From the sequence record PZ049713.1: 59,621 nt of DNA. One strand, written 5' to 3'. Source of the DNA: a phage. Positions 8,093 through 41,934 of the stretch are shown one piece after another. The position numbers and the translations under genes are program-made. Numbering within the stretch: the stretch's first letter is position 1; each line of letters opens with the position of its first letter. Under the pieces are notes generated by a model, which saw only the letters and a program-made list of their open reading frames with translations, made no database searches and was not told the origin of the DNA.

Positions 8093-8367
8093 GCTGCATC
8101 GTGACGCTCTATTCAATCGACAACCGAGTGTCGCGGCCAGTAGTTCGCGGCACTGAGCCTCGGCGCCCTTCCGACTGGAACGCCAGCGCGTGGTTCGTGC
8201 TGCCCAACGGCGAGAAGCACACCCACAGCGCGATGGCCCGTGGTGAAACAGTCACTGGCCTAGTCGCCTACATGGGCGCCCTGATCGACAGCCTGATAGC
8301 TGACCACGGCAACCAAGTAGCCAGCGCCGGCTGGACGGCCACAACGCACGGGAGACGGAAGAAATGA
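8089..8367 (+). CDS. Hypothetical early protein
   Basis: ORF-track frame 8080-8367; ATG at 8089 overlaps upstream stop. Confidence 0.4.
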   Translation: MSCIVTLYSIDNRVSRPVVRGTEPRRPSDWNASAWFVLPNGEKHTHSAMARGETVTGLVAYMGALIDSLIADHGNQVASAGWTATTHGRRKK

Positions 8368-9011
8368 GCCCACTGGCCGGCAGGAGGCGCACGGAATACC
8401 GGCACTGGACGCCGGCAGAGGACGCAACACTGGCAGAACTGTATGCCACCAAGCCCATCACCGAGATAGCAGCCTTGATGGGGCGCGGCACTGGCTCGAT
8501 TCACAATCGCGTGTCGAAACTCGGACTGACGCGACCGGATGAGTTCAAGGAAATCACAGGCTGCGGCAGGTTCAAGCCTGGCCACCAGACATGGAACTCT
8601 GGCCGCAAAGGATGGCAGGCAGGAGGCCGGGCCAAGGACACGCAGTTCAAGCTGGGTCACCGACCATCGAACACCTGGCGCCCCATCGGAGCGGAGCGCA
8701 CCGACAAGGGCGGCATCCTCTACCGCAAGGTGGCGGACACCGGCAACAAGCGCACTGACTGGCGCCCGGTCCACGTGATGTTGTGGGAAGAGCACAGCGG
8801 CCCAGTGCCGGCTGGGCACTTCCTCGTCTTCAAGGATCGCAACCCCGCCAACATCTCAATCGACAACCTCGAGCTAGTCACCCGCGCAGAGAACATGCGC
8901 CGCAACTCAATCGAACGCTATCCGCCCGAGTATCGCCAGGCAGCCATAACGCTCGGCTGGTTCAAGCGGAAGCTCAACAAACTGGAGCAGCACCATGAAC
9001 AACCTCAGTGA
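8364..9011 (+). CDS. HNH endonuclease (HNH_3-like) with N-terminal Myb/SANT-like HTH
   Basis: 215 aa; C-terminal ...HFLVFKDRNPANISIDNLELVTRAEN... resembles the HNH_3 core. Confidence 0.6.
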   Translation: MSPLAGRRRTEYRHWTPAEDATLAELYATKPITEIAALMGRGTGSIHNRVSKLGLTRPDEFKEITGCGRFKPGHQTWNSGRKGWQAGGRAKDTQFKLGHRPSNTWRPIGAERTDKGGILYRKVADTGNKRTDWRPVHVMLWEEHSGPVPAGHFLVFKDRNPANISIDNLELVTRAENMRRNSIERYPPEYRQAAITLGWFKRKLNKLEQHHEQPQ

Positions 9012-10598: not shown

Positions 10599-11263
10599 GC
10601 AAGGTATTGGTTGATCGGGAGCTGTTGGACAGCGCGGCGACATGGCTTGAGGTGCACGCGCCAGGTGGTGGCTGCGTTGAAGGTTCGGTGGCGGAAGATT
10701 TGCGCGCCATTCTTGAACAGCCCGCAGAGGCGGAAGGGGTCGAGGTGGTGGCTTGGCAGCAACGATACATTTGCCCAGACGAAGGCCCGAGCTGTTGGCA
10801 ATCCGCTGATGAGCGGACCTTGGAAATACTTCGGCGTCGCGATGACTATGAGCTTCGCCAGCTGGTCCCGCTAACCGCCCTATCAGCCGTGACCGCCGAG
10901 CGGGATAGGCTGCTGGAGGAAGTGACAGAGCTGGACGCTCTGCGCGATAAGCTGTCGGGCCTACTGAGCAAGACAGCAGTGGCACTCCGAGGGCCTGAGC
11001 CGGAGCTTACTCGGTACGGATATGCCGACATACCGCTACGTGTAAAGACGGTCATTGACGAGCGCGAACAACTGATCGATGGCATGAACAGAATCATGCG
11101 GGCAACACGGCTTGGCGATGACGCATTCGCAATTGCGTGCGAGGTTGTCGGGGAGCTGAATGGCGCCGCCATGGCTGCGAAGGAGGCCGAGCCTGAACAC
11201 GTCTGCTCGGGCTGTGGAGCGAAAGGCTGGACCGGCAACTGCTTAGAGTGCATTCCGTACTAA
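10595..11263 (+). CDS. Hypothetical protein with C-terminal CxxC...CxxC
   Basis: 222 aa; ATGA overlap with upstream gene. Confidence 0.45.
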   Translation: MSKVLVDRELLDSAATWLEVHAPGGGCVEGSVAEDLRAILEQPAEAEGVEVVAWQQRYICPDEGPSCWQSADERTLEILRRRDDYELRQLVPLTALSAVTAERDRLLEEVTELDALRDKLSGLLSKTAVALRGPEPELTRYGYADIPLRVKTVIDEREQLIDGMNRIMRATRLGDDAFAIACEVVGELNGAAMAAKEAEPEHVCSGCGAKGWTGNCLECIPY

Positions 11264-11538
11264 CCCCCCCTAACCCCACCCAAACCCACAGTCTGCCGGC
11301 GAGAGTCGGCGGGGAGGATTTGCTCGTGCCTGTAATTCCATTCATGCGACCCGTTACCGAGCCGCCGCCTGCCGGTAAGCCGATTCAGCTTTTCCTTAAA
11401 GACGGCAGGACGCGCGCAGCCACAACCTCATTAGTCTTCATGGGAAATGAGTGCTTCTTCATGTGGTACGACGCCCAAACACGCAAGTCGATAGCCGTCG
11501 ACAAGATCAAAGGATGGGCGCCGGCTCAGCTCGCCTAA
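11248..11538 (+). CDS. Hypothetical protein (start uncertain)
   Basis: ORF-track frame; GTG at 11248 or ATG at 11344, neither with a clear SD. Confidence 0.3.
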   Translation: MHSVLTPPNPTQTHSLPARVGGEDLLVPVIPFMRPVTEPPPAGKPIQLFLKDGRTRAATTSLVFMGNECFFMWYDAQTRKSIAVDKIKGWAPAQLA

Positions 11539-11562
11539 CCCCACACGCAGCAGGAGATAGAC

Positions 11563-12279
11563 ATGCCCGAACTCATCAAGCGGTTCGCCAAGAACACGGC
11601 GGGCCGTGACTTTGCCGTGGGCGACATTCACGGATGCTTTACGAAGCTGCAGCAGGCGCTCGACGGGATCGGCTTTGACCCGGCAGTCGATCGTCTGTTC
11701 TCGGTTGGCGATCTGGTTGATCGCGGCCCTGAATGTGACATGGCGCTGGAGTGGCTGGCAAAGCCCTGGTTCCACCCGGTGCGCGGCAACCACGACGACT
11801 ACGTGTGCCGGTACGACAGCTGCGAGCTGGGCAACTGGCTCATCAACGGCGGCGGCTGGTTCCTGTCGCTCAACAGCGACGAGCAGGCAGAGTACGCCGT
11901 CCAGTTCCGTGAGCTGCCGATCGCCATTGAACTGGAGACGGACGCAGGGCTAGTTGGCATCGTGCACGCCGACTGCCCATTTCCGACATGGGCTCAGACG
12001 GTCGCCGAGCTGACCGCGCCGGAATCACCGAAGCGCCTGAAACTGGTCAAGAACAGCTGTATGTGGTCGCGCACTCGAATCGAGATGGTCGACACAAGCG
12101 GGATACCGGACCTGCTCGCGCTTGTGGTCGGCCATACCCCGCTGCGCACGCCAGCAATCCTCGGCAACGTCGTTCACATCGACACTGTCGGCTGGCGGGA
12201 TGAAGGCTATTTCACGCTGACGGACTTGAACACGCTGCCTGAAGTTATCGAAGCAGCCAGCGTAACGGTGAGGGGGTGA
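11563..12279 (+). CDS. Ser/Thr protein phosphatase (calcineurin-like metallophosphatase)
   Basis: 238 aa; motifs GDIHG, GDLVDRG, GNHD in canonical order. Confidence 0.8.
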   Translation: MPELIKRFAKNTAGRDFAVGDIHGCFTKLQQALDGIGFDPAVDRLFSVGDLVDRGPECDMALEWLAKPWFHPVRGNHDDYVCRYDSCELGNWLINGGGWFLSLNSDEQAEYAVQFRELPIAIELETDAGLVGIVHADCPFPTWAQTVAELTAPESPKRLKLVKNSCMWSRTRIEMVDTSGIPDLLALVVGHTPLRTPAILGNVVHIDTVGWRDEGYFTLTDLNTLPEVIEAASVTVRG

Positions 12280-12282
12280 GGG

Positions 12283-12630
12283 ATGGGCGCAGAGAAACTA
12301 GAGAATCTGCCGGAGTGGTTCCCCGACAAGGTGACTGAGCAGCAGATGGCCATGATACTTGGCACAACCGATCGAGCCCTAGAAGGCAGGCGAAGCCGGA
12401 ACCAGATTCCCGAGGGCGTCTGGAATCGCATCAATGGACGAATCTACTACAGCCGATCAAGGTACGAAGAATGGCAAGAAAGCCTATGGCACTGCCCACC
12501 GGAGTTGAGCTACGCAACGATACGATCCGCATCCGATTTAGCTGGAACGGAAAGCGATGCTCAGAAACCCTCGCCCTCCCCCCGACGCAAGCGGGCATTG
12601 CCGCTGCATCCCGTCTACGCGATCAAGTAG
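12283..12630 (+). CDS. xis: Excisionase-like DNA-binding protein (3' end uncertain, overlaps int)
   Basis: N-terminal ~65 aa (...VTEQQMAMILGTTDRALEGRRSRNQIPEGVWNRINGRIYYSRSRYEEW) resembles excisionase-family HTH proteins; immediately upstream of int. Confidence 0.5.
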   Translation: MGAEKLENLPEWFPDKVTEQQMAMILGTTDRALEGRRSRNQIPEGVWNRINGRIYYSRSRYEEWQESLWHCPPELSYATIRSASDLAGTESDAQKPSPSPRRKRALPLHPVYAIK

Positions 12631-13652
12631 TCCAGCAGATCAAGCACGGCATCTTCGACGAGCGTAAGTATGCCGAGCTCTTCCCGGGCTCGCCGAACGC
12701 CATATCGAGCGTTTCGCGCGGGTTCGGCCAGTACGCCCAGGTCTGGCTCGACAGCCGATCGATCTCGGAAGGCACGCGCGACAACTACAAGTCAGTGCTC
12801 AATGTCTGGTGGATGCCGTACCTGGCCACAACTCTCCTTCCCAACCTGACGACCGCCTTCATGCGCGAGCTAGTCGTTCAAATCCCATGGACCTCGGACG
12901 GCGTGAAGGCGAACGCCATGAACAAGCTGAGCACCATTCTCGAGTCGGCGGTTTCGGACAGGCTCCTGACGGAGAACCCAATTCAGGCGCTGGACATACC
13001 GACGCGGACGGAAGCGAAGGTCGACCCGTTCACGCAGGATGAGGCGGACAGGATCATTGCCAGGCTCTACGAAACGGAGCACTGGCCCAGCCAGATATAC
13101 GCTGCGTTCTTCGAGTTCGCTTTCTATACCGGCATGCGGTTAGGAGAGATCGCTGCCCTTCGCTGGGAAGAGGTCGATTTGAAGAGGCGTACGGTCCACG
13201 TCTGCAGGTCCGTAGCAAAGAAGAAGGTCGTCGAGCGGACGAAGACCAAGAAGGAAAGGTTTGTGCTGCTGAATGATCGGGCAGTGCATGCCCTTCTGTT
13301 CGCCAAGCAGTACGCCGAGCGGCGCGCGGCCGGCAGCGGGCGGCTGACAGATTTTCCGTTCTGCTTCCCGCCAAGCAAAAACTCTCAGTTCGTGCAGCAG
13401 ACAAGCGACCTGCATCACCAGTGGCGACCGACGCTAAAGGCGCTGGGTATTCGCTACCGGCCCCCGTACAATGCGCGCCACACCTACGCAACCATGTGCC
13501 TGATGGCCGGAATGACACCGGCATTCATCGCCAAGCAGCTCGGCCATTCGATACAGATTCTGCTGTCTCGGTATGCCCGCTGGATCGACGGCGAAGGCGA
13601 TTGGGCTGAGATGCGCAAATTGCAGTTTGCCCCAAAAGTGCCCCAAGCGTAG
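12471..13652 (+). CDS. int: Tyrosine-type phage integrase
   Basis: 393 aa; C-terminal catalytic region with ...ARHTYATMCLMAG...LGHSIQILLSRYARW... (R, H-x-x-R, Y). Confidence 0.9.
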   Translation: MARKPMALPTGVELRNDTIRIRFSWNGKRCSETLALPPTQAGIAAASRLRDQVVQQIKHGIFDERKYAELFPGSPNAISSVSRGFGQYAQVWLDSRSISEGTRDNYKSVLNVWWMPYLATTLLPNLTTAFMRELVVQIPWTSDGVKANAMNKLSTILESAVSDRLLTENPIQALDIPTRTEAKVDPFTQDEADRIIARLYETEHWPSQIYAAFFEFAFYTGMRLGEIAALRWEEVDLKRRTVHVCRSVAKKKVVERTKTKKERFVLLNDRAVHALLFAKQYAERRAAGSGRLTDFPFCFPPSKNSQFVQQTSDLHHQWRPTLKALGIRYRPPYNARHTYATMCLMAGMTPAFIAKQLGHSIQILLSRYARWIDGEGDWAEMRKLQFAPKVPQA

Positions 13653-13851
13653 CACTACACCTCTGAAACCCGCGAGATAAAGCCTCTTGATTTCTACCGC
13701 CAACATCACCATGCAGTTCTAATGGGGGTTTTGGCGGGGTATGCTCCCCGTATTTACTGGGCTGCATGCCCTCACGGGCCCTCGAAAAACCGTACCCTGC
13801 CCCAAAAATTGCCCCGAGATTTGCCCCCTATCTCAGCCCGTCCGGGCAATC

Positions 13852-14367
13852 TCAATTCCCCCTCACCGCGTCATAAGCTTTCTCACACGCCGACCCAGCT
13901 ATTCCTCGGTCATCGGCGACAGCAGCATAGAGTTGAGCAGCCGTTCCAATCCGGCCGAACAAGTCGGCTCGCACTCTGGCGGCGTCCTCGGCTGCCTGGC
14001 TGAGCTGGGCAGTGATGGCATTGCCGGCGTCACGACTGCGCTGCTCAGATGCTGCGAGGCGCAACTTGAGCCGCTCAAGAGCACTACCAGCGCGCTCAGC
14101 ATCGCTACGCGCCGCAGCCAGTTGTTCCTGTGCCTCTGCATCTGCTTTCTCCGTCGCGGCCTGGCGCCGCTGGTTTTCCTGAATGACGAACAGCGCAGCG
14201 CGGCGGTCGCGCTCGCTGACTTCGGTGCGGTAGGAGGCCAGATCGGCCTGCGCCTGCGCGGCGTCAGACTGCGCCGATAGCACCCGGATCTGCTGCCCGC
14301 CGGCCACGGCAGCCAGAGCCAGCACCCACCAGGCCCAGCTGGGCACGAACTTCAGCCAGGCGGTCAT
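13852..14367 (-). CDS. Rz-like i-spanin
   Basis: 171 aa; N-terminal TM (WAWWVLALAAVAGG) followed by Ala/Gln/Arg-rich coiled coil; embedded +1-frame ORF; adjacent to endolysin. Confidence 0.6.
   Translation of the reverse strand: MTAWLKFVPSWAWWVLALAAVAGGQQIRVLSAQSDAAQAQADLASYRTEVSERDRRAALFVIQENQRRQAATEKADAEAQEQLAAARSDAERAGSALERLKLRLAASEQRSRDAGNAITAQLSQAAEDAARVRADLFGRIGTAAQLYAAVADDRGIAGSACEKAYDAVRGN
13899..14102 (-). CDS. Rz1-like o-spanin embedded in Rz
   Basis: Alternative-frame ORF: MLSALVVLLSGSSC signal/lipobox-like start then Pro-rich stretch ending ...PPECEP; the lipobox is not canonical. Confidence 0.4.
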   Translation of the reverse strand: MLSALVVLLSGSSCASQHLSSAVVTPAMPSLPSSARQPRTPPECEPTCSAGLERLLNSMLLSPMTEE

Positions 14368-14843
14368 CGCATCACCTCACGCACGGCCGCGGCGAATCGG
14401 GCTGGCCAGCGATCCGGATGCGGTTTTCCAGGGCGCCATGTACGCAGGTACAGATCCCAGCCGCCCGCAGCGTCATGCTCGCCTGGCAGAGGCTTCGGGT
14501 CAGTCCATAGCAAAAGCCGGCCGAAGGCGAACGCCAGCACGTCGTCACGCTCGAGCGCAGCCCACACGGCGGCAGGCTCAGGCGCAACACCTCGAGCAGC
14601 ACACACTCGACGGGCGTGGTCGCGGCTCGAAGGGTGGCTCAGCACACCACGCACACCACCGCCCTGCTCGAACTGAAGCAGCCCGCGGGCCGGCCCGGTC
14701 GGCCACTGGCGGCGCCGCTGTTCCGGATCTTCCTGCTGAGTAATAGCAAGCAGCATGATCTCTGCCTCTCGGCTCGACATTCGCGCAGGCAGCAGCGCGA
14801 GAGCGGGCGCTATGGCGCGCTCCCGTATTTCAGAGAGGGTCAT
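14364..14843 (-). CDS. Endolysin candidate (lytic transglycosylase / SLT-like)
   Basis: ATG at 14843 (MTLSEIRERAIAPALALL...); SLT-like ...LLAITQQEDPEQ... region; ATGA overlap with Rz. Confidence 0.5.
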   Translation of the reverse strand: MTLSEIRERAIAPALALLPARMSSREAEIMLLAITQQEDPEQRRRQWPTGPARGLLQFEQGGGVRGVLSHPSSRDHARRVCAARGVAPEPAAVWAALERDDVLAFAFGRLLLWTDPKPLPGEHDAAGGWDLYLRTWRPGKPHPDRWPARFAAAVREVMR

Positions 14844-14985
14844 GGGTAATCCTTCAGACGAAAAAAAACCCGACTGGCGGGACGTAAACGAATGTCTCAA
14901 TCGGGTGGTGATAGTCGCCCCATTCGGGCATAATCCACGACTTCCTGAGCAGCGACTCTTTAGCTGTTATTACAAGGATGGGTAT

Positions 14986-16146
14986 ATGAGAAGCGCGTCA
15001 GGCATCTTTCTATTCGTGCTGTTCCCAGGATATTTCTTTTATCACATCGCATATAGCTTGGGCATGGTTCCTTATATTGGAATCTTCACAATCACTCTAG
15101 CCATTGCGTGTGGCTACTTCCTAATTAAGCTATTTATTGGACTTCTGAGAAATCCTTACCCGATAGTGTCATTTGCAGATGCATGCTTTGTTCTGTTAAT
15201 AATCACGCTGTCTGCAATTACCATCGTGAACCACACGCTTAATGACGGTGCGTATATCGATACGGACGGACTTGTGTTTAGCGCATCAATCATCGTATCG
15301 ATGACTGGGCTTTATTTTTTAGGGAGAAATATAGTTCTGGAGCAGCAAAAGAAATCGACGCTTGCAGCGCTGGCTTTACTAGCCGGATACCTCGCATGCG
15401 CGATAATTTTCTATCAAGAAAACGGCGGCTATATGCTGCTCCCCACTCCGAGCGAATCGGCGCCGGAGCCCTCAAATTATCAGGGCCTTGCCCGCTCGGT
15501 TATGTACTCGCTGATTTTCACTTTGCCCTTTATCAAGTCTGGGCTCATGAGATTCGTCTACGCTGCAGCCAGCCTAGCCTGCTTGTATTTGATCGGTTCA
15601 AGAACGGACTTCGCACTTTGCGCTATGGTGTTCCTGGTTTCGATGCTGATAAGGTCAAGCATTAGAGGCGCAGTTATGGCATATGGATTGATGATACTCG
15701 CCTTACCAGCCGCGCTTTATTTTCTCTACCAGTCCGACAGATTCGCGATCAGCTCCACCGACCCGTCACTTGTTGCGCGTGGAATATTCACCGAATCATC
15801 AATAGACGGAATTTCGGGTTCACCTATCCTTGGTGATTACCTCGGGCAGGTTAGAGACTTCGGCGACATTGGAAGTTACGCGCACAACGCTCTTTCCATG
15901 TACCAGCAATTCGGACTAATACCGTTCATTGCTTACATTGCATTCATTATTTTTAGCTTATTGATCGCAATCAAGTCTCTCGCTATAAATCGTCGATCTC
16001 CATACACAGAGCTTCTGCTGCATCTTTCCGTCGTTGCGCTGGCCGGGGTCTTGGTGGCGAAGTCAATACTCTGGACGACCCCAGTACTGGCCTGGGGTCT
16101 TGCGGTGAGCATAAGGAGAAATCGCTACGCTTGTATTAGGCCGTAA
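14986..16146 (+). CDS. Polytopic membrane protein, Wzy-like (O-antigen polymerase/ligase family)
   Basis: 386 aa from ATG 14986 with AAGGA SD; many hydrophobic helices; markedly AT-richer than flanks; between lysis genes and tailspike. Confidence 0.5.
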   Translation: MRSASGIFLFVLFPGYFFYHIAYSLGMVPYIGIFTITLAIACGYFLIKLFIGLLRNPYPIVSFADACFVLLIITLSAITIVNHTLNDGAYIDTDGLVFSASIIVSMTGLYFLGRNIVLEQQKKSTLAALALLAGYLACAIIFYQENGGYMLLPTPSESAPEPSNYQGLARSVMYSLIFTLPFIKSGLMRFVYAAASLACLYLIGSRTDFALCAMVFLVSMLIRSSIRGAVMAYGLMILALPAALYFLYQSDRFAISSTDPSLVARGIFTESSIDGISGSPILGDYLGQVRDFGDIGSYAHNALSMYQQFGLIPFIAYIAFIIFSLLIAIKSLAINRRSPYTELLLHLSVVALAGVLVAKSILWTTPVLAWGLAVSIRRNRYACIRP

Positions 16147-31203: not shown

Positions 31204-32184
31204 TCAGCCATCATAGGCCGGCATGGCTATCGGCGCCAAGATGGGCAGGTGCCTCCACGACTTCCCGATGACGATGCCGCGAATGACGGACCTATGCTTC
31301 CCGTAGTCGCGCGCAATCTGAACCAAGGGCTCACCCCTCTGCGCTCTCCGCCTGATGTCCATGATCTCAGCTTCTGTGAAGGCCGCGTTGTAGACCTTTT
31401 CGCCACGGTGGTTTATTGGCGGGGTATCGCCTAGCGGGAGGTGCCTCCATGTTTCGCCGCTAATAATCTTGCTTACAGCACTCCTGCTCACCCCGTACAT
31501 CTCGGCAATCTTTGCAGCGCTATTGCCGGCCGCCCGCAGACGCCTTATCTCCAGAACCTTTTGATCATTCAGCTTGGCCGATGAGATGTGCTCGCCCTGC
31601 GCGGTCCCCTCTGTCCGCCTTTGCTCCCAGTTGGCACGGCCAGCTATGGAGCTTATAGCTGACCTCTTGGCGTCGGATATCGCCATGCGCCCTCGGCGCG
31701 CCCTTTCGCTGCGCACCGCCGGGCCTACCATCATGCGGGCTTCGTGCTGCGCGTCAGTCCATGGAACATCTTTCTTCACAGCAGACATGCGAGCGCGGTA
31801 CTCATCGCAGCTCCACAGCCTCTGCACTGCCGACCTTATTCGGTCTCTGAGCTCTGGCGGAGCATCCAGCATCCCTTCGCCGCCCGCTGTGTGATTGACC
31901 AGATTGGCGCCGCCGGCCTTGAGCTTTGCTATCCAGTAGCGCTCAGATTCGTTCCATGTGGCGTCTCGCTGCAAGACTCTCACGCAGGCCTCATCGCCCC
32001 GCGCTATAACTGACCGGACCCAGTAGTCGCGGTGGGTTGGCCTGCTGGTTGACCCTGAGCGGGTTACGTGCTGGCGCAGCCGTCGCTCCACGGAGACCAC
32101 GGTCTGCCCGACATAGCGCATCAGTCCGTCAGATTTTGCATATAGCGCGTATACCGTGCACGTGCGAGAATTGGCGTCAGCCAT
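31204..32184 (-). CDS. GIY-YIG homing endonuclease with tandem C-terminal HTH repeats
   Basis: 326 aa; N-terminal VYALYAKSDGLMRYVGQT...RLRQH; two repeats of ...(I/V)A(E/R)xYG(V/K)xRS(A/V)(V/I)...(E/K)(T/S)WRHLP. Confidence 0.75.
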   Translation of the reverse strand: MADANSRTCTVYALYAKSDGLMRYVGQTVVSVERRLRQHVTRSGSTSRPTHRDYWVRSVIARGDEACVRVLQRDATWNESERYWIAKLKAGGANLVNHTAGGEGMLDAPPELRDRIRSAVQRLWSCDEYRARMSAVKKDVPWTDAQHEARMMVGPAVRSERARRGRMAISDAKRSAISSIAGRANWEQRRTEGTAQGEHISSAKLNDQKVLEIRRLRAAGNSAAKIAEMYGVSRSAVSKIISGETWRHLPLGDTPPINHRGEKVYNAAFTEAEIMDIRRRAQRGEPLVQIARDYGKHRSVIRGIVIGKSWRHLPILAPIAMPAYDG

Positions 32185-33349: not shown

Positions 33350-34692
33350 TACATACCTCCAAGGCCCGGCCCCTGCTCCTGAATCAGCTCAAGCTCAGCC
33401 AGCCAGTCGCGCTCAGGCAGCTTCCCGGTCGAGATGTAGCGCCAGAACGAGTCATGGCTAACGATGCCGGCCTGCGCCGCGGTGAGCAGCTGAGCCGCAA
33501 TCTGAGGATCAACGCCGGCGGAGGAAAAGTCAGGCTTAACAGCGAATCGCAGGTCACCGCTGGTAGCGACGATCTCAGCCGCATAGCGCAGGCACTGCTC
33601 GATAGCCTCTGCAACGGTGATAACAATCGTGTAGAGCGTGCTGTGCTGATCGCTTTGACGCGCCAGTCGCGCCTCGCCGGACTCGGTGCCACCGAGATCC
33701 ACGACGCGCGCCCCAGCCTCAAGCGCTGCATTGCGCTGCTGCTCCATCAGGCGCTCATTGATCGCGCTGCCAGCCCCGCTCGGCTCCAGATAGAACGCAT
33801 TTCCGCCAGTAGGCAGGCACCACGCAGCGGACGGCCCAGTGACGCGCAGGTCTTGATCATCATCCAGTCCAACCACAACAGGCTGCGCATGACAGGTAGC
33901 GTGCGCATTGCTGAACAGGTCGGCGCTGAGCTGGTAGCTCTTGAGCGCGGCCTTGGCCATGGTCAGCAGCGGGATCTCGTCAACGTCAGCGGCATTGTCG
34001 GTCGAACCGGCAATCACCATCGGGATGTAGCGGATAGCGCCGGCTACGCCACGAGCTGACTGCGGCTCCTCAATGGCAGCCCCCTTGTCGTCGAAAAGCT
34101 GCGAGGCATACGCCCCATCTTCCAGGCTCAGCACGCGGTAAACCGTGTCGACTTCATGGGCGAACCGATCATCACCCTTGCGGCGATCTTCCTGCAGGAC
34201 GACCAATGCCAAGTCCTGCCGGCCGCGCTGGTCGCTGAGCCCCCAATTGATGAGACTGAGCGCTGGATATAGCGTGATGTACGGGGCGCCGTCTGAGTCG
34301 ACGTCCACGAGCAGGCCAGCCCGTCCGAACAGAATCACATCGCGACAGGCGCGCATGAAGAGCTGACGCAGGCCGAAACCATCAGCGGTCGCGTCATCTT
34401 CCATCCGAGCGATACCAGCCGGCAGCGTGATCTCAGGCTGCAGGCGGGACACCATGCCGATCATGCTACGCAGCGCGTCCTTTACCCAATGCGGGTATTG
34501 GGCACGGAGCGTGTAGGCTTCGTACAGGTATGAGTTGGTCGGGTCGTCCTTCTCAGCTTCGACCATGCCGGCCGGCTTCGGCAGATTCGCCGGGTTCGCC
34601 TTTACGGCAGACTCGCCTTTTACCGCTTCGGCCATTATCAGCCAGTCGGCCAGGTGTGCCGTGTAGTCTGGATGACGGCTTGATACGGGCAT
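33349..34692 (-). CDS. Portal protein
   Basis: ~447 aa from ATG at 34692..34690, which overlaps the TerL stop (TAATG); ORF-track start 34860 is an upstream in-frame extension. Confidence 0.65.
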   Translation of the reverse strand: MPVSSRHPDYTAHLADWLIMAEAVKGESAVKANPANLPKPAGMVEAEKDDPTNSYLYEAYTLRAQYPHWVKDALRSMIGMVSRLQPEITLPAGIARMEDDATADGFGLRQLFMRACRDVILFGRAGLLVDVDSDGAPYITLYPALSLINWGLSDQRGRQDLALVVLQEDRRKGDDRFAHEVDTVYRVLSLEDGAYASQLFDDKGAAIEEPQSARGVAGAIRYIPMVIAGSTDNAADVDEIPLLTMAKAALKSYQLSADLFSNAHATCHAQPVVVGLDDDQDLRVTGPSAAWCLPTGGNAFYLEPSGAGSAINERLMEQQRNAALEAGARVVDLGGTESGEARLARQSDQHSTLYTIVITVAEAIEQCLRYAAEIVATSGDLRFAVKPDFSSAGVDPQIAAQLLTAAQAGIVSHDSFWRYISTGKLPERDWLAELELIQEQGPGLGGM

Positions 34693-35978
34693 TATGTGAG
34701 TCCTCGGATGCGGCGGGTGCCCGCTGCGCGCTTGATGATCGGGAAGCGGTGAACGACGAAGTAGCCGAAGGCATCGGCCGGGTCTTCCGTGCCGTCCTTG
34801 TTGGGCTCTCCGTGTTCGTTGTATGCCTGCTGCTCGAGCACCTGGGTGGTGACCGGGCATTTGTCGGTATTGACCTTCAGCCGGCGCACGCCCTCGCCAT
34901 TGAGGAACATGGCGTTAACGGCCAGAACGCGGTCACGAACCATTGGGTTAGCCGGGTTGACGCGAACCGTGAAGCCGGCCTGCTTGAGCAGGCTGTGATC
35001 CGACTCGCTGCCGTTGACGCTCTTGCGGTTCTTGCCGCTGGCGTCGGGGTAGACGGTGATCTTGTGGCCGGGGAATCGCTCCAGTAGCGCAGCGATCATT
35101 GCAGGCGTGTCGAACAGGCTGGTCAACTCATCCAGTTGCCGCGGCTCACCATCACGAATGACGAACACGCAGGCCGCCATCCGATTGATGTTGAAGTCCA
35201 TACCTACATGCAGCTCTTCACCCGGGCGAATCGTCTCGTCGGTGTGATTCAGGCGCCGGCAGAAGTTCGGATAGACCGATCCGCTCACTAGGTTGACGAA
35301 CTGGCCGTCAATGTAGGCGTCGACCAGGTTGGCCGGGTACGACTCGCGCAGCGAAGGGATGTAGTCCTTCGGCAGGTTCTTGGCGTTCTGCCGCGTGCTG
35401 GCATGGACGATGCCATACAGCGGGCGCTGGCTCGGATTGGCGGCCAGCTCCTTGACGAACTTGCGATATACCCAGTTGAACCCCTCCGGCGTGGTCGTCA
35501 CGTCGATGGTGTTCTCTCCGCGCGTCGGCCAGACAGTCGACATACGGGCGATGATCTTTTTCCAGGCGCTGTCAGCCTTCTTGATCGGCATGCAGTCGAT
35601 CTCGTCGACCAAGGCGTGCGCAATGTTGAAGCCGACGATGCGGCCAGGGTGCTCCATGCTCTTGCAGACGATCGTCGACAGGCAGCGGCCTTTCGAGTCG
35701 CGCAGATGCACCCGCTTGTTGCTCGGCACGATGTCAGCGAACAGCCCGAAGGCCTCGGCAACGCCCGGTATCGTGTCGTAGAAGATGTCCGCGATCTGCG
35801 GATAGGTAGGCGCGAAGTAGCCCTGCGGAATGCCGGGGTGCTCCAGCGCGTTGATACACAGCCGCACGCAGCCTACGAACGTCTTGCCGCTTCGATACCC
35901 GCCGACGAACGCTGAGAACTTCTTCGGGTGGCTGATAAACTCGAACTGCGGCTTATTCAGCTTCAGGGTCGCTTGCAT
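34692..35978 (-). CDS. Terminase large subunit
   Basis: 428 aa; Walker A VGGYRSGKT near N-terminus; followed by portal. Confidence 0.85.
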   Translation of the reverse strand: MQATLKLNKPQFEFISHPKKFSAFVGGYRSGKTFVGCVRLCINALEHPGIPQGYFAPTYPQIADIFYDTIPGVAEAFGLFADIVPSNKRVHLRDSKGRCLSTIVCKSMEHPGRIVGFNIAHALVDEIDCMPIKKADSAWKKIIARMSTVWPTRGENTIDVTTTPEGFNWVYRKFVKELAANPSQRPLYGIVHASTRQNAKNLPKDYIPSLRESYPANLVDAYIDGQFVNLVSGSVYPNFCRRLNHTDETIRPGEELHVGMDFNINRMAACVFVIRDGEPRQLDELTSLFDTPAMIAALLERFPGHKITVYPDASGKNRKSVNGSESDHSLLKQAGFTVRVNPANPMVRDRVLAVNAMFLNGEGVRRLKVNTDKCPVTTQVLEQQAYNEHGEPNKDGTEDPADAFGYFVVHRFPIIKRAAGTRRIRGLT

Positions 35979-36426
35979 CTTCCACCCCGATGATGACTTG
36001 CTTCGGCTCAGGCAAGCCCTGATTCGGGTCTTCCAGTTCGCGGCGCAGCTTCTCGTTGGTCAGACGCTTGGTGTCGAGCTCTTCGCGCGTCTTGGTCAGC
36101 GACTCGATGCGCGCCAAGTAGCGGTCAGCCAGCAGGTCGTAGCCGTCCGCCTTCGCCATCAGCACGCGATTCAGCAGAACCTTCGTCAGCCGAAGCTCTT
36201 GGTCGATCTGGTCAATCTCGGCAGCATGGAAGTCGGCCTGCTCTTCATCCGTCAGGTACTTGCTATAAATCGATCCAGGCTTGGCGGCATGCCTGTTGCC
36301 GTACTGCCTTGCAGGCTCTTTCGGCCCCGTGCTTTTACCGCCATGAAGGGAGCAGCGGCTTTTCCCCGCAACAGCATCTCTTTGGCATTCCCCGCCCGCA
36401 CGGGTACGAGCCCAGCACTTAGGCAT
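35953..36426 (-). CDS. Terminase small subunit candidate (HGGxSTG-domain protein)
   Basis: 157 aa; N-terminal Cys-rich ...CSLHGGKSTGPK... motif; overlaps TerL start. Confidence 0.5.
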   Translation of the reverse strand: MPKCWARTRAGGECQRDAVAGKSRCSLHGGKSTGPKEPARQYGNRHAAKPGSIYSKYLTDEEQADFHAAEIDQIDQELRLTKVLLNRVLMAKADGYDLLADRYLARIESLTKTREELDTKRLTNEKLRRELEDPNQGLPEPKQVIIGVEDASDPEAE

Positions 36427-36470
36427 GGTTCAACCTCGCTCATGGGGTTTCGTTTTCTCAGATCAGCGAA

Positions 36471-37205
36471 TCACATTAGAAGCGTGAACTGCCCATCCCA
36501 CGAATCGGACTTCTTTAGGTTCAGCTTGGCCCACATGGGGCGCAGGTTGTTTAGGCTGTTTGCAGCTTTTAGCTGCACGGGGTCAGTCAGATCAAAGGAT
36601 GACAGCGGTCTAATGTGGTCGATATGCCACTTATCCCTGTTGTGCCAGCCCATTCCACTATGGAATAGCGCTTCAAGGTGCTGGGCAAGGTCAGAGGCTG
36701 AATAGCCTAGGCATTCGGCAGTAACGTCTTCTTTCGCCTTCCCAACAAGCTCCAAGCAGCGCCTTATCATGCATCTTGATGCCTCTGCCGCCATCCCTTG
36801 CGGCGTCGATCTTCGACGCTTGCCTCTAATTGAGATTGACACTCTGCCCTTTTCAGACTTGGCATACTCAGCCTTGCGCTGGCGATACTCTTTAGTTTTG
36901 CGTTTGGCGCGAATCTTCTCTTGGAATTCAGGAGAGTAGTATTTCCTCCTAAGGCGCTCTTTTGCTTGTGGCGTAGCGTTTCTGGACTTCGCCCTTGCGC
37001 TACGCTTCGCCCGGTACTCCTCAGACTCTTCGCGTCTTGCTGCTCGCTCTCTCTCGCACTCTAGACAGTGCCCGGTTGCAGAAGACCTTTCCGAGTAATG
37101 CTCTCTGCGGCACGGGATGCCCGTAAAGTATTTGCTGAGCCCGACCTCTTTCGCTACTGAGCGCGAGACAATATGAATGCACGCGGATAGACTTGCGTCA
37201 GTCAT
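36471..37205 (-). CDS. HNH endonuclease, terminase-associated, with N-terminal zinc module
   Basis: 244 aa; C-terminal ...WHIDHIRP...NLRPMWAKLN...; N-terminal KYFTGIPC...GHCLEC module. Confidence 0.7.
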   Translation of the reverse strand: MTDASLSACIHIVSRSVAKEVGLSKYFTGIPCRREHYSERSSATGHCLECERERAARREESEEYRAKRSARAKSRNATPQAKERLRRKYYSPEFQEKIRAKRKTKEYRQRKAEYAKSEKGRVSISIRGKRRRSTPQGMAAEASRCMIRRCLELVGKAKEDVTAECLGYSASDLAQHLEALFHSGMGWHNRDKWHIDHIRPLSSFDLTDPVQLKAANSLNNLRPMWAKLNLKKSDSWDGQFTLLM

Positions 37206-37238
37206 TGCCGTGATCCTCGACCGATCAGGTGGTGGCTA

Positions 37239-37271
37239 GAAGCCCGGAAGTGTTAGCGCACTCCGGGCTTC
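37239..37271. other. Perfect 10-bp stem / 13-nt loop hairpin upstream of HNH-terminase genes (cos/pac candidate)
   Basis: GAAGCCCGGA-agtgttagcgcac-TCCGGGCTTC; no U-tract on either strand. Confidence 0.35.
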
Positions 37272-37294
37272 GTCATTATAGCGCTTCGCTTAAT

Positions 37295-37480
37295 CTATTT
37301 CCCCACCATTTCCATCCACTCCTCCACGATCCGCTGCAACACGGGCTCGGTCAGGATGCTGGATGGCTGCCTTCCGGCTATTACGTCGCGAAGGAGGCTG
37401 TGCGGTATCTGGTGCACTGCGTCAGACGCATCGATGATGACGTGCGGCTGCCTGTCGGCTAGATCGACGACGTTTTGCAT
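37295..37480 (-). CDS. Hypothetical small protein
   Basis: 61-aa ORF in operon orientation. Confidence 0.3.
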   Translation of the reverse strand: MQNVVDLADRQPHVIIDASDAVHQIPHSLLRDVIAGRQPSSILTEPVLQRIVEEWMEMVGK

Positions 37481-37579
37481 GGGCGCGCTCTCGGTTTACT
37501 GCCAACCACACCTCTTTCCCGATCATCACAGCGACACAGGCTGCGATGTATAGGAACAGGATGGTGGCGTGCAGGCGTT

Positions 37580-37795
37580 TCACTTCGGCTCACCAGTCAC
37601 CTTCGGCTGCGACACCACCCGGGCGACAGCCATAGCCACGCCGAGAACCATGTTCACGCTGGCCCATGCGACGGGGCTGATGTGGCCCTCGAACGCTACC
37701 CATGCACCGGCTGCGGCGTTGAGCACTGCGGTCAGGATGGCGAGCTGCACACTGGTCAGACGCCAGCACTTGCGCCATTCAGGAATCAGGTTCAT
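37580..37795 (-). CDS. Holin-like small membrane protein
   Basis: 71 aa with two hydrophobic segments; ATGA overlap with upstream gene; early in the late operon. Confidence 0.4.
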   Translation of the reverse strand: MNLIPEWRKCWRLTSVQLAILTAVLNAAAGAWVAFEGHISPVAWASVNMVLGVAMAVARVVSQPKVTGEPK

Positions 37796-38106
37796 GAGCC
37801 GAACCCCTTAGCCACGAACGGCCATAGCTTGTCGAAAACTGCCACCATCACCACGCCGGCGCCAATCCCATAGGTGAGCTTGTTGCTCAGTGTGTCCACC
37901 TTCCCGGCTACCTCGTCCTGGCTCTCTCCGATTGCGGTGAGCTGGCGGGTCATGTGCTCGAACTGCTGCTCGAGCTTGGTGAGGCGGTTGGGTGACTGGG
38001 CGTGGTCGCGGTCGAATCTGTCTAGGCGGTGCCGGGTTACGGCTGCCTCTTGCTCCAGGGCGCCGACTCGCTCATGCACTGTCCTGCCCTCATGGCTGTC
38101 GGTCAT
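37792..38106 (-). CDS. XhlA-like membrane protein (coiled coil plus C-terminal TM)
   Basis: 104 aa; N-terminal charged helix, C-terminal YGIGAGVVMVAVF TM. Confidence 0.35.
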   Translation of the reverse strand: MTDSHEGRTVHERVGALEQEAAVTRHRLDRFDRDHAQSPNRLTKLEQQFEHMTRQLTAIGESQDEVAGKVDTLSNKLTYGIGAGVVMVAVFDKLWPFVAKGFGS

Positions 38107-38213
38107 AGTGGAGTCTCGTTGGTGTTTGGTCCGGCCTCACATGCGCGTGCGATCCGCTCGGGGCAAGGAGGCAGGCATGGGGCCGGAATAGGGTTTAGGC
38201 GCGTGCGCCTGAA

Positions 38214-38462
38214 TCAGTCAGCTGGGGAAATGTCCACGTAGTAGGCTTTCCCCAGCTCAAGCTTGTTAGCCACCTCAGTGACCATGCCTGCCCGGAACTC
38301 ACCGTAAGGGGTCAGCCTGCCGAACACAGCGTTTTCATCTTCTTCCGTCCCGGTTACGCCGCTCGCATATACCGCGCCGAACCGAACGAGCGACATGCCT
38401 TCGGTGTGCTGGTTAAGCGAGATTTCGTGACAGATCATCTTGCAGCGAATGCGATGGGTCAT
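38214..38462 (-). CDS. Hypothetical protein, first ORF of late operon
   Basis: 82-aa ORF directly downstream of the tandem terminators. Confidence 0.35.
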   Translation of the reverse strand: MTHRIRCKMICHEISLNQHTEGMSLVRFGAVYASGVTGTEEDENAVFGRLTPYGEFRAGMVTEVANKLELGKAYYVDISPAD

Positions 38463-38514
38463 CTTGTGGTCCTTTGGTTGGTGCAGGATGGCCTATCAGT
38501 CTTTCGCCTGCTGA

Positions 38515-38544
38515 AACGAAGAAAGCCCCGCACTTGGCGAGGCC
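38515..38544 (-). terminator. Intrinsic terminator, late leader (downstream copy)
   Basis: Minus-strand RNA GCCUCGC-caagu-GCGGGGC then UUUCUUCGUUUC; the stem closes only on the minus strand (G-U wobble vs C-A mismatch on plus). Confidence 0.55.
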
Positions 38545-38759
38545 GAAAGATGTAGATCCCGATTCCCCGCACGTCTACGGGGCGATACCTGTTATCAGGT
38601 CGCGCAGTGTGCTGCGTGTGGCGCGTAGCCGATCGCAAGCAGGCCGGGGATTTGATGCGCTGTATTGGATGACGCGAGTATTAGCAGCGCTTGCCGTCGC
38701 ACGGCGTGGTGTTTGATGGGCGCAGGATGGCGAGGCCTTCGTCAGCCAGGTTCCGCCCG

Positions 38760-38789
38760 AAACGAAAAAGCCCCGACCGAAGTCAGGGC
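38760..38789 (-). terminator. Intrinsic terminator, late leader (upstream copy)
   Basis: Minus-strand RNA GCCCUGAC-uucg-GUCGGGGC then UUUUUCGUUU; 8-bp stem with UUCG tetraloop. Confidence 0.6.
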
Positions 38790-39035
38790 TCTTGAAGTTG
38801 TCCAAGGGGACTCTCCCCCTTGAGGCCACACCACTTTCTACTTGCGCTGATCAGACGCTTTCGCAGCAGGTGTCGCTGTATGCCGCGCCCGTAACGACAT
38901 TGGACCGGGACGATTCGCGACTCTCGGCCATCTCAACGCGAGAAATGACCAAGATAGGCATAGGATGGCTCATTGGCTCACAGGATGCAATAGCTGATTT
39001 GCACAAATCTGCGCTTTTTTGAGCAAATCTGCTGT

Positions 39036-39581
39036 TTATGCCGCTTGCTCAGCAATCAACCCCTCATTACCGAGGATCTCCTGCGCCTCAACCAGCGCTT
39101 GATCCACTTGGCGCTCCAGGTCACGGCGAATGTCCCGGCGCCACCGCTCCAGTGTCTTTTGCGGGCGGCCGTCTTCGTCCCAGCGGTCAAGCTCATACCA
39201 TGCGGCCGGCAATACGCTCGTGCTTCGCTTCCCTTCCGCGCCGGGCAGCTTCGGGAATGCCCAGGTGGCTACGGCGCACTGGATGAACCGGCCAGGTGCT
39301 GGCGACTTCACCGATCCGGCCAGCGCCATCATCGCATCGTGCTTGCGCTCCAGATGGGTGCTGTACTTGGCGACGAGCGCCAGCCACAGACCAACCGGCA
39401 GCGCCTTGTGCAGGCGACCATGGACCCAGCAGTCGGTTAAGAATGCCTCTTCCTTGCCGCAGATCGCCCCAGGCACTCGCTGGTCTTGCACCTTGGGGTC
39501 AAAGTCCACGCCGCCAGCGCTATTGATCGTCTCCGCAGCCAGAGCCCGGACTACTGCTGATACAACTGATGGGTAGGTCAT
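39036..39581 (-). CDS. Putative late-gene regulator (Q-like antiterminator candidate)
   Basis: 181 aa; positional only, last gene before the terminator-containing late leader; no motif recognised. Confidence 0.25.
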   Translation of the reverse strand: MTYPSVVSAVVRALAAETINSAGGVDFDPKVQDQRVPGAICGKEEAFLTDCWVHGRLHKALPVGLWLALVAKYSTHLERKHDAMMALAGSVKSPAPGRFIQCAVATWAFPKLPGAEGKRSTSVLPAAWYELDRWDEDGRPQKTLERWRRDIRRDLERQVDQALVEAQEILGNEGLIAEQAA

Positions 39582-40723
39582 CAGAACAATCTCCCAAGGG
39601 ATGCTGCGAATTCGTAAGGGTCTTTAGCGCTCTTGCGCAGGTTGCAAGGCGGGCACGCGATAACCAGATTGTCGACCACGTGCATTCCACCCTTCGATAG
39701 CGGCTGATAGTGGTCAACGTGATAGTTGTTTTCACACTTTGATTTGCACCAGTGGCAAAACTTTGGAACTGATCGCTCCCAGGCCATAATCACGGACGTA
39801 CTATCGCCACCAGCCTCTAGCTGTCTGCGCCTAGCCTTGTACGCTTTAGATATCGCCTTCCTGATCTCTGGATTCTTCTTTGCCCACTCTTTGGCTTTCT
39901 GCGCCCTTACTTCCCTGTTTTGTTCGTTGCGAATTCTCGCAAGTTGAATGATCCGATCCCTGTTTTCAGCAAGGTATTTCCGGTCGTACTCTTTTTTAAG
40001 TTCAGACCGTGAGAAAATTGCCAAGCACTCGACACATGATCCGGAGGCTGTATATTTCATGCCGCTGTGGCCCTTCGAGCACGGCCGTCCGACATACATT
40101 AAGGCGCCGCTTTCGAGCGCTATCTTTCGTGCGCTCTTGGCTATCCTGCGCTCCTTGCGACGAGCAGCTACCTCCGCCAGCCGAGACGATCGCTCTTCTG
40201 AGATTCGCTTGCGCTCTGCCTTCCCCTTCTCGTACTCCTCCAGCGTCATTCCGAACTTGGCGGCTGCCGATATAGCCTCGCATGTCCGGCAGCGATCAGT
40301 TGATACGTAGCGCTCTGCTGAATGTCCGTTAACGCACGGCAATCCGATGCTGTAGAACATCAGCCCGGCATCCATAGCAGCTTGCCGGAGAGAAGCGCGC
40401 CGTTCCCTCTCAGCTTTCCGCACGGCCAGCCCTGGATCTCGCTTCAGCCGTCGCGACATTTTCTTCTCTGCGCACAAAGGGTCAGAGTCACGCCGCAGCT
40501 TTTGCTCAGCGCGCTCGGCCTCTATGTTCGCGTGATACTTAGCTTTCCTCTTCAGCCTGGCGCACTCACAGCACGCGCCATTGATCGTGGCCCTGCTGGC
40601 GACGTGACCGGCAGGGCAAGGCTTGCCAGTGAAATAGGATTTGCTGCCGGCCTCCTTCGCCTCTTTTCGGCTGCAAGGAAGGTTCAAGTCATCTTGATCT
40701 TTGTTAGAATTCAAATCAGCCAT
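39581..40723 (-). CDS. HNH endonuclease with three N-terminal zinc-module repeats
   Basis: ~380 aa from ATG at 40723; C-terminal HVDHYQPLSKGG...NLVIACPPCNLRKS; three YFTG/YSIG/YVGxPC...GH...CxEC repeats. Confidence 0.65.
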   Translation of the reverse strand: MADLNSNKDQDDLNLPCSRKEAKEAGSKSYFTGKPCPAGHVASRATINGACCECARLKRKAKYHANIEAERAEQKLRRDSDPLCAEKKMSRRLKRDPGLAVRKAERERRASLRQAAMDAGLMFYSIGLPCVNGHSAERYVSTDRCRTCEAISAAAKFGMTLEEYEKGKAERKRISEERSSRLAEVAARRKERRIAKSARKIALESGALMYVGRPCSKGHSGMKYTASGSCVECLAIFSRSELKKEYDRKYLAENRDRIIQLARIRNEQNREVRAQKAKEWAKKNPEIRKAISKAYKARRRQLEAGGDSTSVIMAWERSVPKFCHWCKSKCENNYHVDHYQPLSKGGMHVVDNLVIACPPCNLRKSAKDPYEFAASLGRLF

Positions 40724-40806: not shown

Positions 40807-41934
40807 TCAAGCACATAACATTTCCGGCACAACTTCGTTAACTGCTACTCGCCCATATTCCTTGTGGTAGGTAATACCTATTGCGCGGCGGTTAGAGGCA
40901 TAGCCGAGTCTGGCTGCATATGATCCGGTCGCAGTCAGCGTCGGATGCCTGCGAACTATCATTCCGTTATGCGTAGCGACCTCTTCCTTGTGGTAGTGGC
41001 CGGTGTGCGCCTCTCTGTGCTTTGTGCAGCCCCAAATCTCGGGGAAGTTCGCCGCGAAGATGCCCGGCAGGTCCGAATTGCGCGCCTTGTGGCCGTGATG
41101 AAAGCCGAGCATCGTCTTGCCGTGCTGGTAGACGTAATACGGCGTCTCGCTCATGTTCACTTTCAATCTCGGCTCGTTTTCATATAGAGCCTCGAACATA
41201 TGGCGCAACCACAGCGATCCGGCCAAGTCATGGTTGCCCTCTGCAATTACCAGATGGACTTCCTCGTGCTTTGCCAGCGCCATATCAATAATGCTGCGTA
41301 GAACTTTGATACTAACCCGCACCAACTCTGCATATATGCCAGAGACGTTGAGCGGGTGCCGATTGGTTGGCGTTACTGGCTCCAGTCCGTCAAACGTCAG
41401 GAAGTCGCCTAGCTGGTTGATGACGCAATATCTCGCCTTGGCCGATGCGTTGATCATTGCGGCAAAGCAGCCGACAAGCACGCGCTCGGCTTCTTCGAGG
41501 TTCCAGTCGGCGCCACCCTGGATGGCAGTCGCGTATTCCCCGATGTGACAGTCCGTCAGGGTGTACAGGTTGCACAGCGCGTCGTCGGTTTGGGCAGGCC
41601 CGCCCATTGGCGCCAAGCGGTCTATCTGTTCGCCCATTGCTGCGGCTGCGGCGTGCATTAGCTCTAGCTGCCGTTCGTGGTCGATGCTGGACTTGACCCA
41701 CTGCAGCTTCTGCTCGCCGTCCTTGCCGTACAGTGTCGACGTGCCTTTCAGGTGGAAGCCGTCCGGCACGCTCTTGGTCATGTCGTGCTCCGGGCTCCAC
41801 CCCTGACGAGCCAAGCGCGCCTTATGGGTGTAGACGTTGCGCTCGTGCAGCCCAAGGATCTGCGCAGCCTCTGCCACAGTGCGGCCAGTCAGCGCGGCCT
41901 TGATTTCGTCGTCTGTCGCTTTGCGTGCGGCCAT
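40807..41934 (-). CDS. HTH-containing calcineurin-like metallophosphoesterase
   Basis: 375 aa; N-terminal HTH-like stretch; TDCHIG, GDFLTFDG, EGNHD, GFHHGH motifs. Confidence 0.5.
   Translation of the reverse strand: MAARKATDDEIKAALTGRTVAEAAQILGLHERNVYTHKARLARQGWSPEHDMTKSVPDGFHLKGTSTLYGKDGEQKLQWVKSSIDHERQLELMHAAAAAMGEQIDRLAPMGGPAQTDDALCNLYTLTDCHIGEYATAIQGGADWNLEEAERVLVGCFAAMINASAKARYCVINQLGDFLTFDGLEPVTPTNRHPLNVSGIYAELVRVSIKVLRSIIDMALAKHEEVHLVIAEGNHDLAGSLWLRHMFEALYENEPRLKVNMSETPYYVYQHGKTMLGFHHGHKARNSDLPGIFAANFPEIWGCTKHREAHTGHYHKEEVATHNGMIVRRHPTLTATGSYAARLGYASNRRAIGITYHKEYGRVAVNEVVPEMLCA

Follow-up and report, generated by a model that had tools for sequence, protein, structure and literature searches.

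Optional phage nuclease genes that share a repeated, putatively zinc-binding module at a terminase locus and an exonuclease-like locus

Two nuclease-like genes of a single Pseudomonas-type phage share a small cysteine- and histidine-containing module, present once in one gene and three times in the other, which raises the question of what the module does and why the two genes are located where they are. Both genes lie on the minus strand of sequence record PZ049713.1, a phage DNA of 59,621 nucleotides (nt) that we refer to as the window. The p1 gene (36471..37205) encodes 244 amino acids (aa; PHROG family phrog_1035, 2.6e-20) and is located next to the terminase genes; the p2 gene (39581..40723) encodes 380 aa (Pfam HNH, 2.5e-9) and follows a gene for an exonuclease-like protein, here called exo704. 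The two open reading frames (ORFs) have the coordinates and the strand given in a first-pass annotation of this DNA, which had described them as homing-endonuclease-like. We consider it reasonably likely that p1 and p2 are free-standing, selfish nuclease genes of the homing-endonuclease type and that their modules would anchor the proteins on the DNA beside the insertion site. The module is real and conserved, has a confidently predicted fold and is joined to several nuclease partners, and both genes are optional at fixed loci, subject to purifying selection, and differ in their histories from the genes that flank them.

The module spans ~44 aa with the consensus (I/V)sRxeAxxxGlxxYfTGxPCxxGHxxxRxxxxGxCxxC. 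A hidden Markov model (HMM) made from 42 copies in other proteins, excluding the window's own and near-identical sequences, was compared to the six-frame ORF segments of the window, 1158 in all. Only four copies were significant: three in p2, at residues 17-60 (40544..40675; independent E-value 1.1e-21), 111-154 (40262..40393; 6.9e-14), and 196-239 (40007..40138; 9.9e-16), and one in p1, at residues 13-56 (37038..37169; 4e-20), all on the minus strand. Given that these values are far from the next best match (0.31), the modules are not low-complexity artefacts. The copy numbers of the YFTGxPC...GH...CxEC motif noted in the first-pass annotation are recovered by the HMM; its wording requires correction for p1, which reads EH (RREH) in place of GH. 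That the repeats are due to chance or low complexity, or that the genes are decaying pseudogenes, can be regarded as refuted, since module E-values range from 1e-21 to 7e-14 compared to 0.3, the structural models reach a predicted local distance difference test (pLDDT) score of 92-93, the ratio of non-synonymous to synonymous divergence (dN/dS) is 0.07-0.09, and the homologous ORFs are intact. HMM and structure comparison, suggested at first pass as a check on the repeats, thus delineate a conserved and confidently folded unit (pLDDT 92), and neither of the two outcomes named there as fatal, i.e. repeats without a conserved fold or pseudogenes in relatives, was observed.

How widespread is this unit? 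No match to the module was obtained in Pfam (even at E<=10), in NCBIfam, or among PDB sequences. Its counterparts in PHROGs are families 1081 and 23777, both without an assigned function, and a part of phrog_1035, which is labelled 'endonuclease VII'. When 1.84 billion cluster representatives were scanned exhaustively with HMMER, 20,463 proteins with the module were recovered at E<=1e-3, of which 8,037 also passed E<=1e-10; they contain up to seven copies each. A word-indexed search with the module profile returned only seven stand-alone proteins of 55-72 aa, and the size of the family became visible by exhaustive HMMER. Among the best 147 HMMER matches, each protein carries two to six copies (436 in all) at a median spacing of 64 aa; the first copy begins at median residue 5, and a median of 107 residues lies beyond the last copy. 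The four proposed ligand positions are nearly invariant in these 436 copies (C22, 100%; H26, 94%; C37, 99%; C40, 100%), as are R30 (94%) and, essentially, A8, G25, G12, and Y16, and the helix past the CxxC is rich in Arg and Lys. The Pfam partners of the module in the same 147 proteins are HNH (41), HNH_5 (40), Endonuclease_7 (11), and HNH_4 (11), with the module usually located N-terminal to nucleases of the HNH or endonuclease VII type. Some of the structural matches in BFVD carry the annotation group I intron (GIY-YIG) endonuclease, endonuclease VII, or HNH, and many others are uncharacterised stand-alone forms of 65-145 aa. Full-text searches with YFTGKPC-type motif strings retrieved no papers, and no description of the module was found in the literature on NUMODs, zinc domains, and HNH proteins, which is no proof of absence.

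AlphaFold predicts the module (p2 module 1, pLDDT 92.4) as a helix and a strand, followed by the PCxxGH knuckle, a beta-hairpin, and a long helix that starts from the CxxC. In a treble clef, the first two ligands come from a knuckle and the last two from the first turn of a helix, with a loop and a beta-hairpin in between (PMC5714182). The modelled layout may be described as treble-clef-like, with Cys, His, Cys, and Cys as putative zinc ligands (C32, H36, C47, and C50 in p1), and each module would bind one zinc via Cys-x3-His...Cys-x2-Cys. We also considered that the module might be a decayed HNH domain, and rejected this on hhalign probabilities of 1% against the p2-type HNH and 0.1% against the p1-type.

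Outside the modules, the two proteins appear to follow the same three-part layout: one or several N-terminal modules, a long and strongly basic helix after each, and a C-terminal nuclease of the beta-beta-alpha-metal (His-Me finger) type. In p2, the modules and helical linkers precede a canonical HNH core (39626..39757, minus strand) with the motif CHWC...HVDH...N...CPPCN, which is invariant in the homologue alignment. This core scores 37.6 bits against PF01844 (cut-off 21.4) and matches PDB 4h9d as well as HNH domains of the IscB/Cas9 type, and on these sequence features p2 is assigned to the HNH / His-Me finger family as defined by PF01844. The start codon at 40723 was preferred over the ATG at 40816 because a GGGAG Shine-Dalgarno sequence is located 6 nt upstream of it and because homologues measure 370-380 aa. 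The N-terminal half of p2 is basic, with an isoelectric point (pI) of 9.9; a Pfam ICEA match on p2 (E 0.0017) is below the cut-off and was taken as compositional.

The p1 protein combines its single module with a basic, all-helical linker (residues 57-159; 36729..37037, minus strand; helices H48-154 of the model) and a Cys-less, HNH-like domain. Residues 1-155 have a pI of 10.4, with 41 Lys and Arg compared to 19 Asp and Glu. In the AlphaFold model of the full-length protein (pLDDT 93), the module is followed by a run of helices (62-154), and E193-197, E221-225, and H226-232 form a C-terminal beta-beta-alpha arrangement. Together with sequence conservation, this model delineates a putative His-Me-finger-like domain (36492..36728, minus strand) containing WHIDHIRPL...NLRPMWAKLNLKKSD. 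A W-H-I-D-H...N-L-x-P...N-x-x-K motif is kept across 57 p1 homologues, in which D196, H197, and N220 are invariant; no Pfam domain was detected in any of 116 homologues. Based on the invariant D-H...N...N residues and the modelled beta-beta-alpha elements, the p1 nuclease may be a Cys-less, Cas9-like variant of HNH, with support below Pfam thresholds. In both proteins, the region between modules and nuclease domain (p1 62-154, p2 240-320) is a series of basic helices in which a Y...N.E / NPE...R pattern recurs, and this helical region is also present in HNH-only relatives without the module. It may constitute a second nucleic-acid-binding element.

Is the module needed for targeting at all? 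One could argue that the helical repeats, together with the nuclease core, confer specificity and that the module serves as a structural, oligomerisation, or RNA/protein-binding zinc domain. The stand-alone module proteins would fit this idea, as would the variable number of modules (zero to three) at one and the same locus and the HNH protein of phage gamma, which retains its specificity when the zinc ribbon is deleted (PMC3592412). However, the module is joined to at least three unrelated nuclease folds, usually at the N-terminus, and combines an invariant Arg with a strongly basic flanking helix. Its relationship to the nuclease domain is illustrated by the gene upstream of terS, the small terminase subunit gene, in L221 (1286-2011) and L108 (6322-7074): the N-terminus of its product is p1-like (MTDASLSA; 56% identity over 50 aa, including the module) and its C-terminus is a Cys4 HNH, unlike the Cys-less domain of p1. 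This gene thus looks like the product of a nuclease-domain swap at the same locus, in which the module was kept. The relatives L204 and L028 pair the module with a second kind of zinc ribbon, CxxC...F...DG...CxxC. Together, these combinations support the view that the module is an exchangeable N-terminal unit, which is kept at a locus when the nuclease head is replaced. Given its fusion to several unrelated nuclease types and the head swap in L221 and L108, a role of the module in DNA recognition is plausible, and we consider a purely non-targeting function quite unlikely.

Turning to the genomic positions, p1 is located directly upstream of terS (35953..36426, minus strand; phrog_1889, 3e-6), which in turn is directly upstream of the gene for the large subunit, TerL (34692..35978, minus strand; Terminase_6N/6C type, Pfam E-values 2.9e-26 and 3.4e-12). 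At first pass, p1 had been called a terminase-associated HNH, and its place might indeed reflect function: p1 could be a packaging accessory nuclease similar to HK97 gp74, which would cut concatemers together with terminase. Genes of the p1 type occupy the same place in Pseudomonas phage PS-1 and in L002 and L007, and HNH genes beside terminase can be parts of the packaging machinery, although such a position is compatible with both readings (PMC3592412; PMC10448857). Other terminase loci argue against this function. We searched IMG/VR and found no p1-type gene within 3 kb upstream of terS in any of the 31 contigs with a full-length terS relative (48-85% aa identity), or in any of the 44 contigs sharing the terS C-terminus, and phiPSA1, despite a TerL that is 84% identical, is without one as well. 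Members of the p1 family also occur at non-packaging sites, namely between the tail sheath gene and the tube gene and behind RecT/YqaJ, as well as in the interval from TerL to portal. The co-occurrence with a terminase type that characterises HK97 gp74 is not seen for p1 in these contigs and phiPSA1, and TerL of the window is of the Terminase_6N/6C and not the HK97 type. The missing co-occurrence, the existence of clean p1-less alleles, and the other family sites all speak against a functional tie to the terminase; as far as sequence comparison can tell, the label 'terminase-associated' is positional only, and a role of p1 in packaging is unlikely.

The p1-less alleles indicate that p1 is mobile. 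To either side of p1 (34729-36301 and 37305-38190), more than 10 contigs match the window at 90-95% identity but are without the ~870 nt between. Breakpoints were determined by blastn against L172-L179 and L204 and by junction alignment; they are clean, one coinciding with the stop codon that ends the upstream gene (37295) and the other lying ~125 nt into terS. The optional segment that carries p1 (36427..37296, minus strand) contains its own TATAAT upstream of p1 (37275-37280) and, between the stop codon of the upstream gene and p1, a 10-bp GC-rich hairpin without a T-run (37239-37271). On the terS side, the 5' ~125 nt of the gene (36301..36426, minus strand) are diverged between p1-bearing and p1-less alleles, so that 90-95% identity returns only from 36301 downstream; the first ~42 terS codons are homologous to those of p1-less alleles, but far less similar to them than is the remainder of terS (~95% identity). 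This stretch is a candidate co-conversion tract or homing target. In comparison with the prophage L002, synonymous divergence (dS) of p1 is 2.6 and that of the adjacent TerL and TerS genes 0.41-0.46, an excess of about sixfold in which the p1 value, being above 1, is saturated. At the same time, p1 evolves under purifying selection (dN/dS 0.071). This clean presence/absence polymorphism, found at fixed loci, strengthens the homing-endonuclease-like interpretation made at first pass.

The p2 gene presents a similar case at another locus. The exo704 gene (40807..41934, minus strand; phrog_704 'DNA repair exonuclease', 3e-120) encodes 375 aa with an N-terminal helix-turn-helix (HTH) and a metallophosphoesterase-like part carrying the motifs DxH, GD, GNHD, HHGH, and GHYH; no Pfam phosphoesterase match was obtained. 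Relatives of p2 (49-93% identity) are located directly downstream of an exo704-type gene of 375-389 aa at almost all of their loci. Yet an HNH gene follows in only six of the 78 best exo704 loci in IMG/VR, and in L002 exo704 is followed by Lar and Q genes and no p2-type HNH. Measured within a single genome pair, dS is 1.36 for p2 (above 1 and thus saturated) and 0.20 for the adjacent exo704, a difference of about sevenfold. The dN/dS of p2 is 0.086, which again indicates purifying selection, and the value within the modules is 0.09. Among the related loci, L182 and L183 (304-942) carry a one-module HNH gene that starts with MAARKATDDEIK, equivalent to the first 12 exo704 codons, which suggests that a deletion or recombination event fused the exo704 start to the HNH gene.

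Could p2 instead be the working partner of exo704? In such a two-gene cassette for DNA processing, which might act in recombination, replication restart, or anti-defence, the zinc modules would recruit p2 to DNA or to its partner. This idea would account for the near-constant position of p2-type HNH genes directly downstream of exo704, which holds even at 33-50% protein identity, and for the tight gene boundaries (exo704 and the HNH gene are 84 nt apart in the window and only 2 nt apart in L012). The 72 of 78 exo704 loci without a downstream HNH, the replacement by Lar and Q in L002, and the sevenfold difference in dS point in the other direction. PADLOC detected only generic similarity to the PtuB HNH domain and no known defence system for p1 or p2. 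On this evidence, we consider the partnership fairly unlikely.

We therefore favour the view that p1 and p2 are homing-type genes. Both are optional at a fixed intergenic site, as indicated by 0/31 contigs and clean breakpoints for p1 and by 6/78 loci for p2, and both differ from their flanks in dS, with values above 1 being saturated. Optional presence, purifying selection, and an excess of dS over neighbouring genes together form the signature of the free-standing homing-endonuclease genes (HEGs) of phage T4 (PMC2988022). The following course of events, including the binding of zinc and of DNA, cleavage, the choice of target sites, and homing, is inferred. The modules and basic helices would serve as DNA-binding anchors next to the insertion site, adding affinity or extending specificity, and the nuclease would nick or cut alleles that are without the gene. 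The p1 protein would target either the space that separates the lysis genes from terS or the terS 5' end, and p2 the 3' flank of exo704. Recombinational repair from a co-infecting or resident copy would then insert the nuclease gene at the cut site.

Several observations weigh against this proposal. The p1 nuclease domain is below the Pfam cut-off (the best match being HNH_4 with 10 bits, compared to the required 22), and a Foldseek search of the PDB with the p1 model returned the Cas9 HNH, the SspE C-terminal domain, and ColE7 as top matches at non-significant E-values of 0.36-5. The dS values of both genes are above 1 and therefore saturated. A p1-like gene upstream of terS recurs in four phages with different terminases, i.e. 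the window, PS-1 (gp48, 41% identical to p1), L002 (73%), and L007 (37%), with the TerL of L007 being only 27% identical to that of the window, and a packaging-linked role for p1 is thus a live alternative, albeit one of low probability. All four exo704 genes that are at least 96% identical to the window's have kept the HNH gene, so that the pair is fixed in this clade, which fits a functional partnership too. Finally, p2-type HNH genes at the exo704 locus carry zero, one, two, or three modules, and the modules can therefore not be the sole determinant of the site.

The proposed architecture is related to, and distinct from, several known systems. Phages and prophages naturally encode zinc-ribbon HNH nicking endonucleases, e.g. 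N.phiGamma and N.BceSVIII, in which deletion of the zinc domain weakens activity and relaxes specificity (Xu and Gupta, 2013; PMC3592412). Like these nickases, p1 and p2 have putative N-terminal zinc site(s) and a C-terminal HNH (p2) or HNH-like (p1) domain, are encoded by a phage, and belong to a type of gene often located beside terminase genes; at the level of architecture, the full arrangement of a [CxxC]2 HNH with N-terminal zinc is present in p2, and p1 is without the [CxxC]2. The zinc motifs listed for the nickases are CxxxxC, CxxxxH, CxxxC, HxxxH, CxxC, and CxxH (PMC3592412), and this list sets the module apart, given that its Cx3H...Cx2C is not included. The module differs further by its extended, conserved N-terminal helix, and its arrays reach up to seven units spaced ~64 aa apart, compared to one or two sites in nickases of 95-300 aa. 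Zinc domain(s) combined with HNH near terminase have thus been described before (PMC3592412), and what is new here is a widespread, uncharacterised tandem module in a familiar type of mobile gene.

NUMODs offer a second comparison, since they too are small modules, single or in tandem, that are shuffled among HNH and GIY-YIG enzymes and tether the catalytic domain, a function that for our module is proposed. However, NUMODs are helical or HTH-like and not zinc-dependent, and the module has no Pfam match to NUMOD1, NUMOD3, or NUMOD4, even at E<=10. The finger of I-TevI is a single Cys4 linker element, unlike the tandem module. With the Seg and Mob genes of T4 (PMC2988022) and the ICP1-like HEGs (PMC10448857), p1 and p2 share an intergenic and optional location beside conserved or essential genes, promoter-like signals of their own, and a place at mosaic boundaries with histories at odds with their flanks; they differ in the DNA-binding region. 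The region upstream of the terminase genes has been described as a hot spot for HEG-like nucleases, and nuclease genes have been found at the boundaries of exchange (PMC10448857). HK97 gp74, an HNH gene, resembles the HNH-like p1 in its place directly upstream of terminase genes, but is conserved with the HK97-type terminase and stimulates cos cleavage, whereas the relatives of the terminase next to p1 nearly all lack a p1 gene. T4 endonuclease VII is a member of the His-Me finger superfamily, as are p2 and, putatively, p1; PF02945 (Endonuclease_7) is matched by neither of the two proteins at E<=1, and we read the 'endonuclease VII' label on PS-1 gp48 and phrog_1035 as annotation carry-over.

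In addition to p1 and p2, the window contains three further nuclease-like genes. A GIY-YIG gene with HTH domains (31204..32184, minus strand; Pfam GIY-YIG, 1.5e-5) is located downstream of the terS-terL-portal-MuF block, which it brackets together with p1 in the 'HEG island' arrangement of PMC10448857. No homologue of this gene was found in the examined parts of L001, L002, L005, and L009; in PS-1, a different HNH gene (gp52) separates the portal gene from the head-morphogenesis gene. The other two are an HNH_3-type nuclease-like gene (8364..9011, plus strand; Pfam HNH_3, 1e-15; phrog_1891, 2e-51) and an 'HNH endonuclease'-like gene (55749/55893..56462, plus strand) recognised by phrog_3377 (2e-50) and without a Pfam match. 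The catalytic competence of the latter product (55893-56462) is doubtful because SLDRID replaces the catalytic His of the HNH_3 type; the 8364 product reads LVFKDRN at the corresponding position. Both may be catalytically altered or inactive.

All five genes belong to one genome, as the first-pass annotation had assumed. Window positions 1-7491 are the reverse complement of 7575-15083 (98.4% identity, 49 mismatches, 62 gap openings), and positions 58684-59604 repeat 7468-8388 exactly, which together indicate a single true genome of ~51.2 kb, circular or terminally redundant, plus a fold-back duplicate. This duplicate, which holds frameshifted gene copies, probably arose as an artefact of assembly or of long reads. 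It accounts for the presence of two 'integrases' and two NinI-like phosphatases, and we rejected the notion that two integrases indicate two prophages given that the second integrase is the other arm of the duplication. In a different assembly, the ENA contig L010 (1-5140), the exo704-HNH pair occurs twice, inverted around ~2320, i.e. in a fold-back-type duplication. The nearest sequenced relative is PS-1, with 87.6% nt identity across 37139-39567. The five nuclease-like genes account for ~4.1 kb, or ~8%, of the ~51.2-kb genome. The density of such genes had been called unusual, and it is high; however, it is not without precedent, as the corresponding share in T4, termed an oddity, is 11% (PMC2988022).

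Should DNA binding by the module be borne out, more than 20,000 protein clusters would form one very large unannotated family without an entry in Pfam, NCBIfam, or PDB, and thousands of phage proteins now listed as 'hypothetical' or 'endonuclease VII' could be annotated more accurately. A more far-reaching and rather doubtful possibility is that the Cys-His-Cys-Cys module is a natural, array-forming DNA-reading unit, each unit with its basic helix contacting a few bp. On this view, proteins in which one to seven units are joined to an HNH, endonuclease VII-type, or GIY-YIG domain would amount to natural 'zinc-finger nucleases' whose target length scales with copy number, and their specificity might be read from, or re-engineered at, the variable positions of hairpin and helix, offering compact natural arrays for nickase and nuclease engineering. 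The two loci also carry a note of caution, in that an HNH gene beside terminase is not automatically a packaging factor. Beside the terminase and beside the phosphoesterase gene, p1 and p2 provide two clean cases of optional nuclease genes that mark mosaic boundaries, and they lend support to the idea that recombination among temperate Pseudomonas phages is shaped by genes of this kind.

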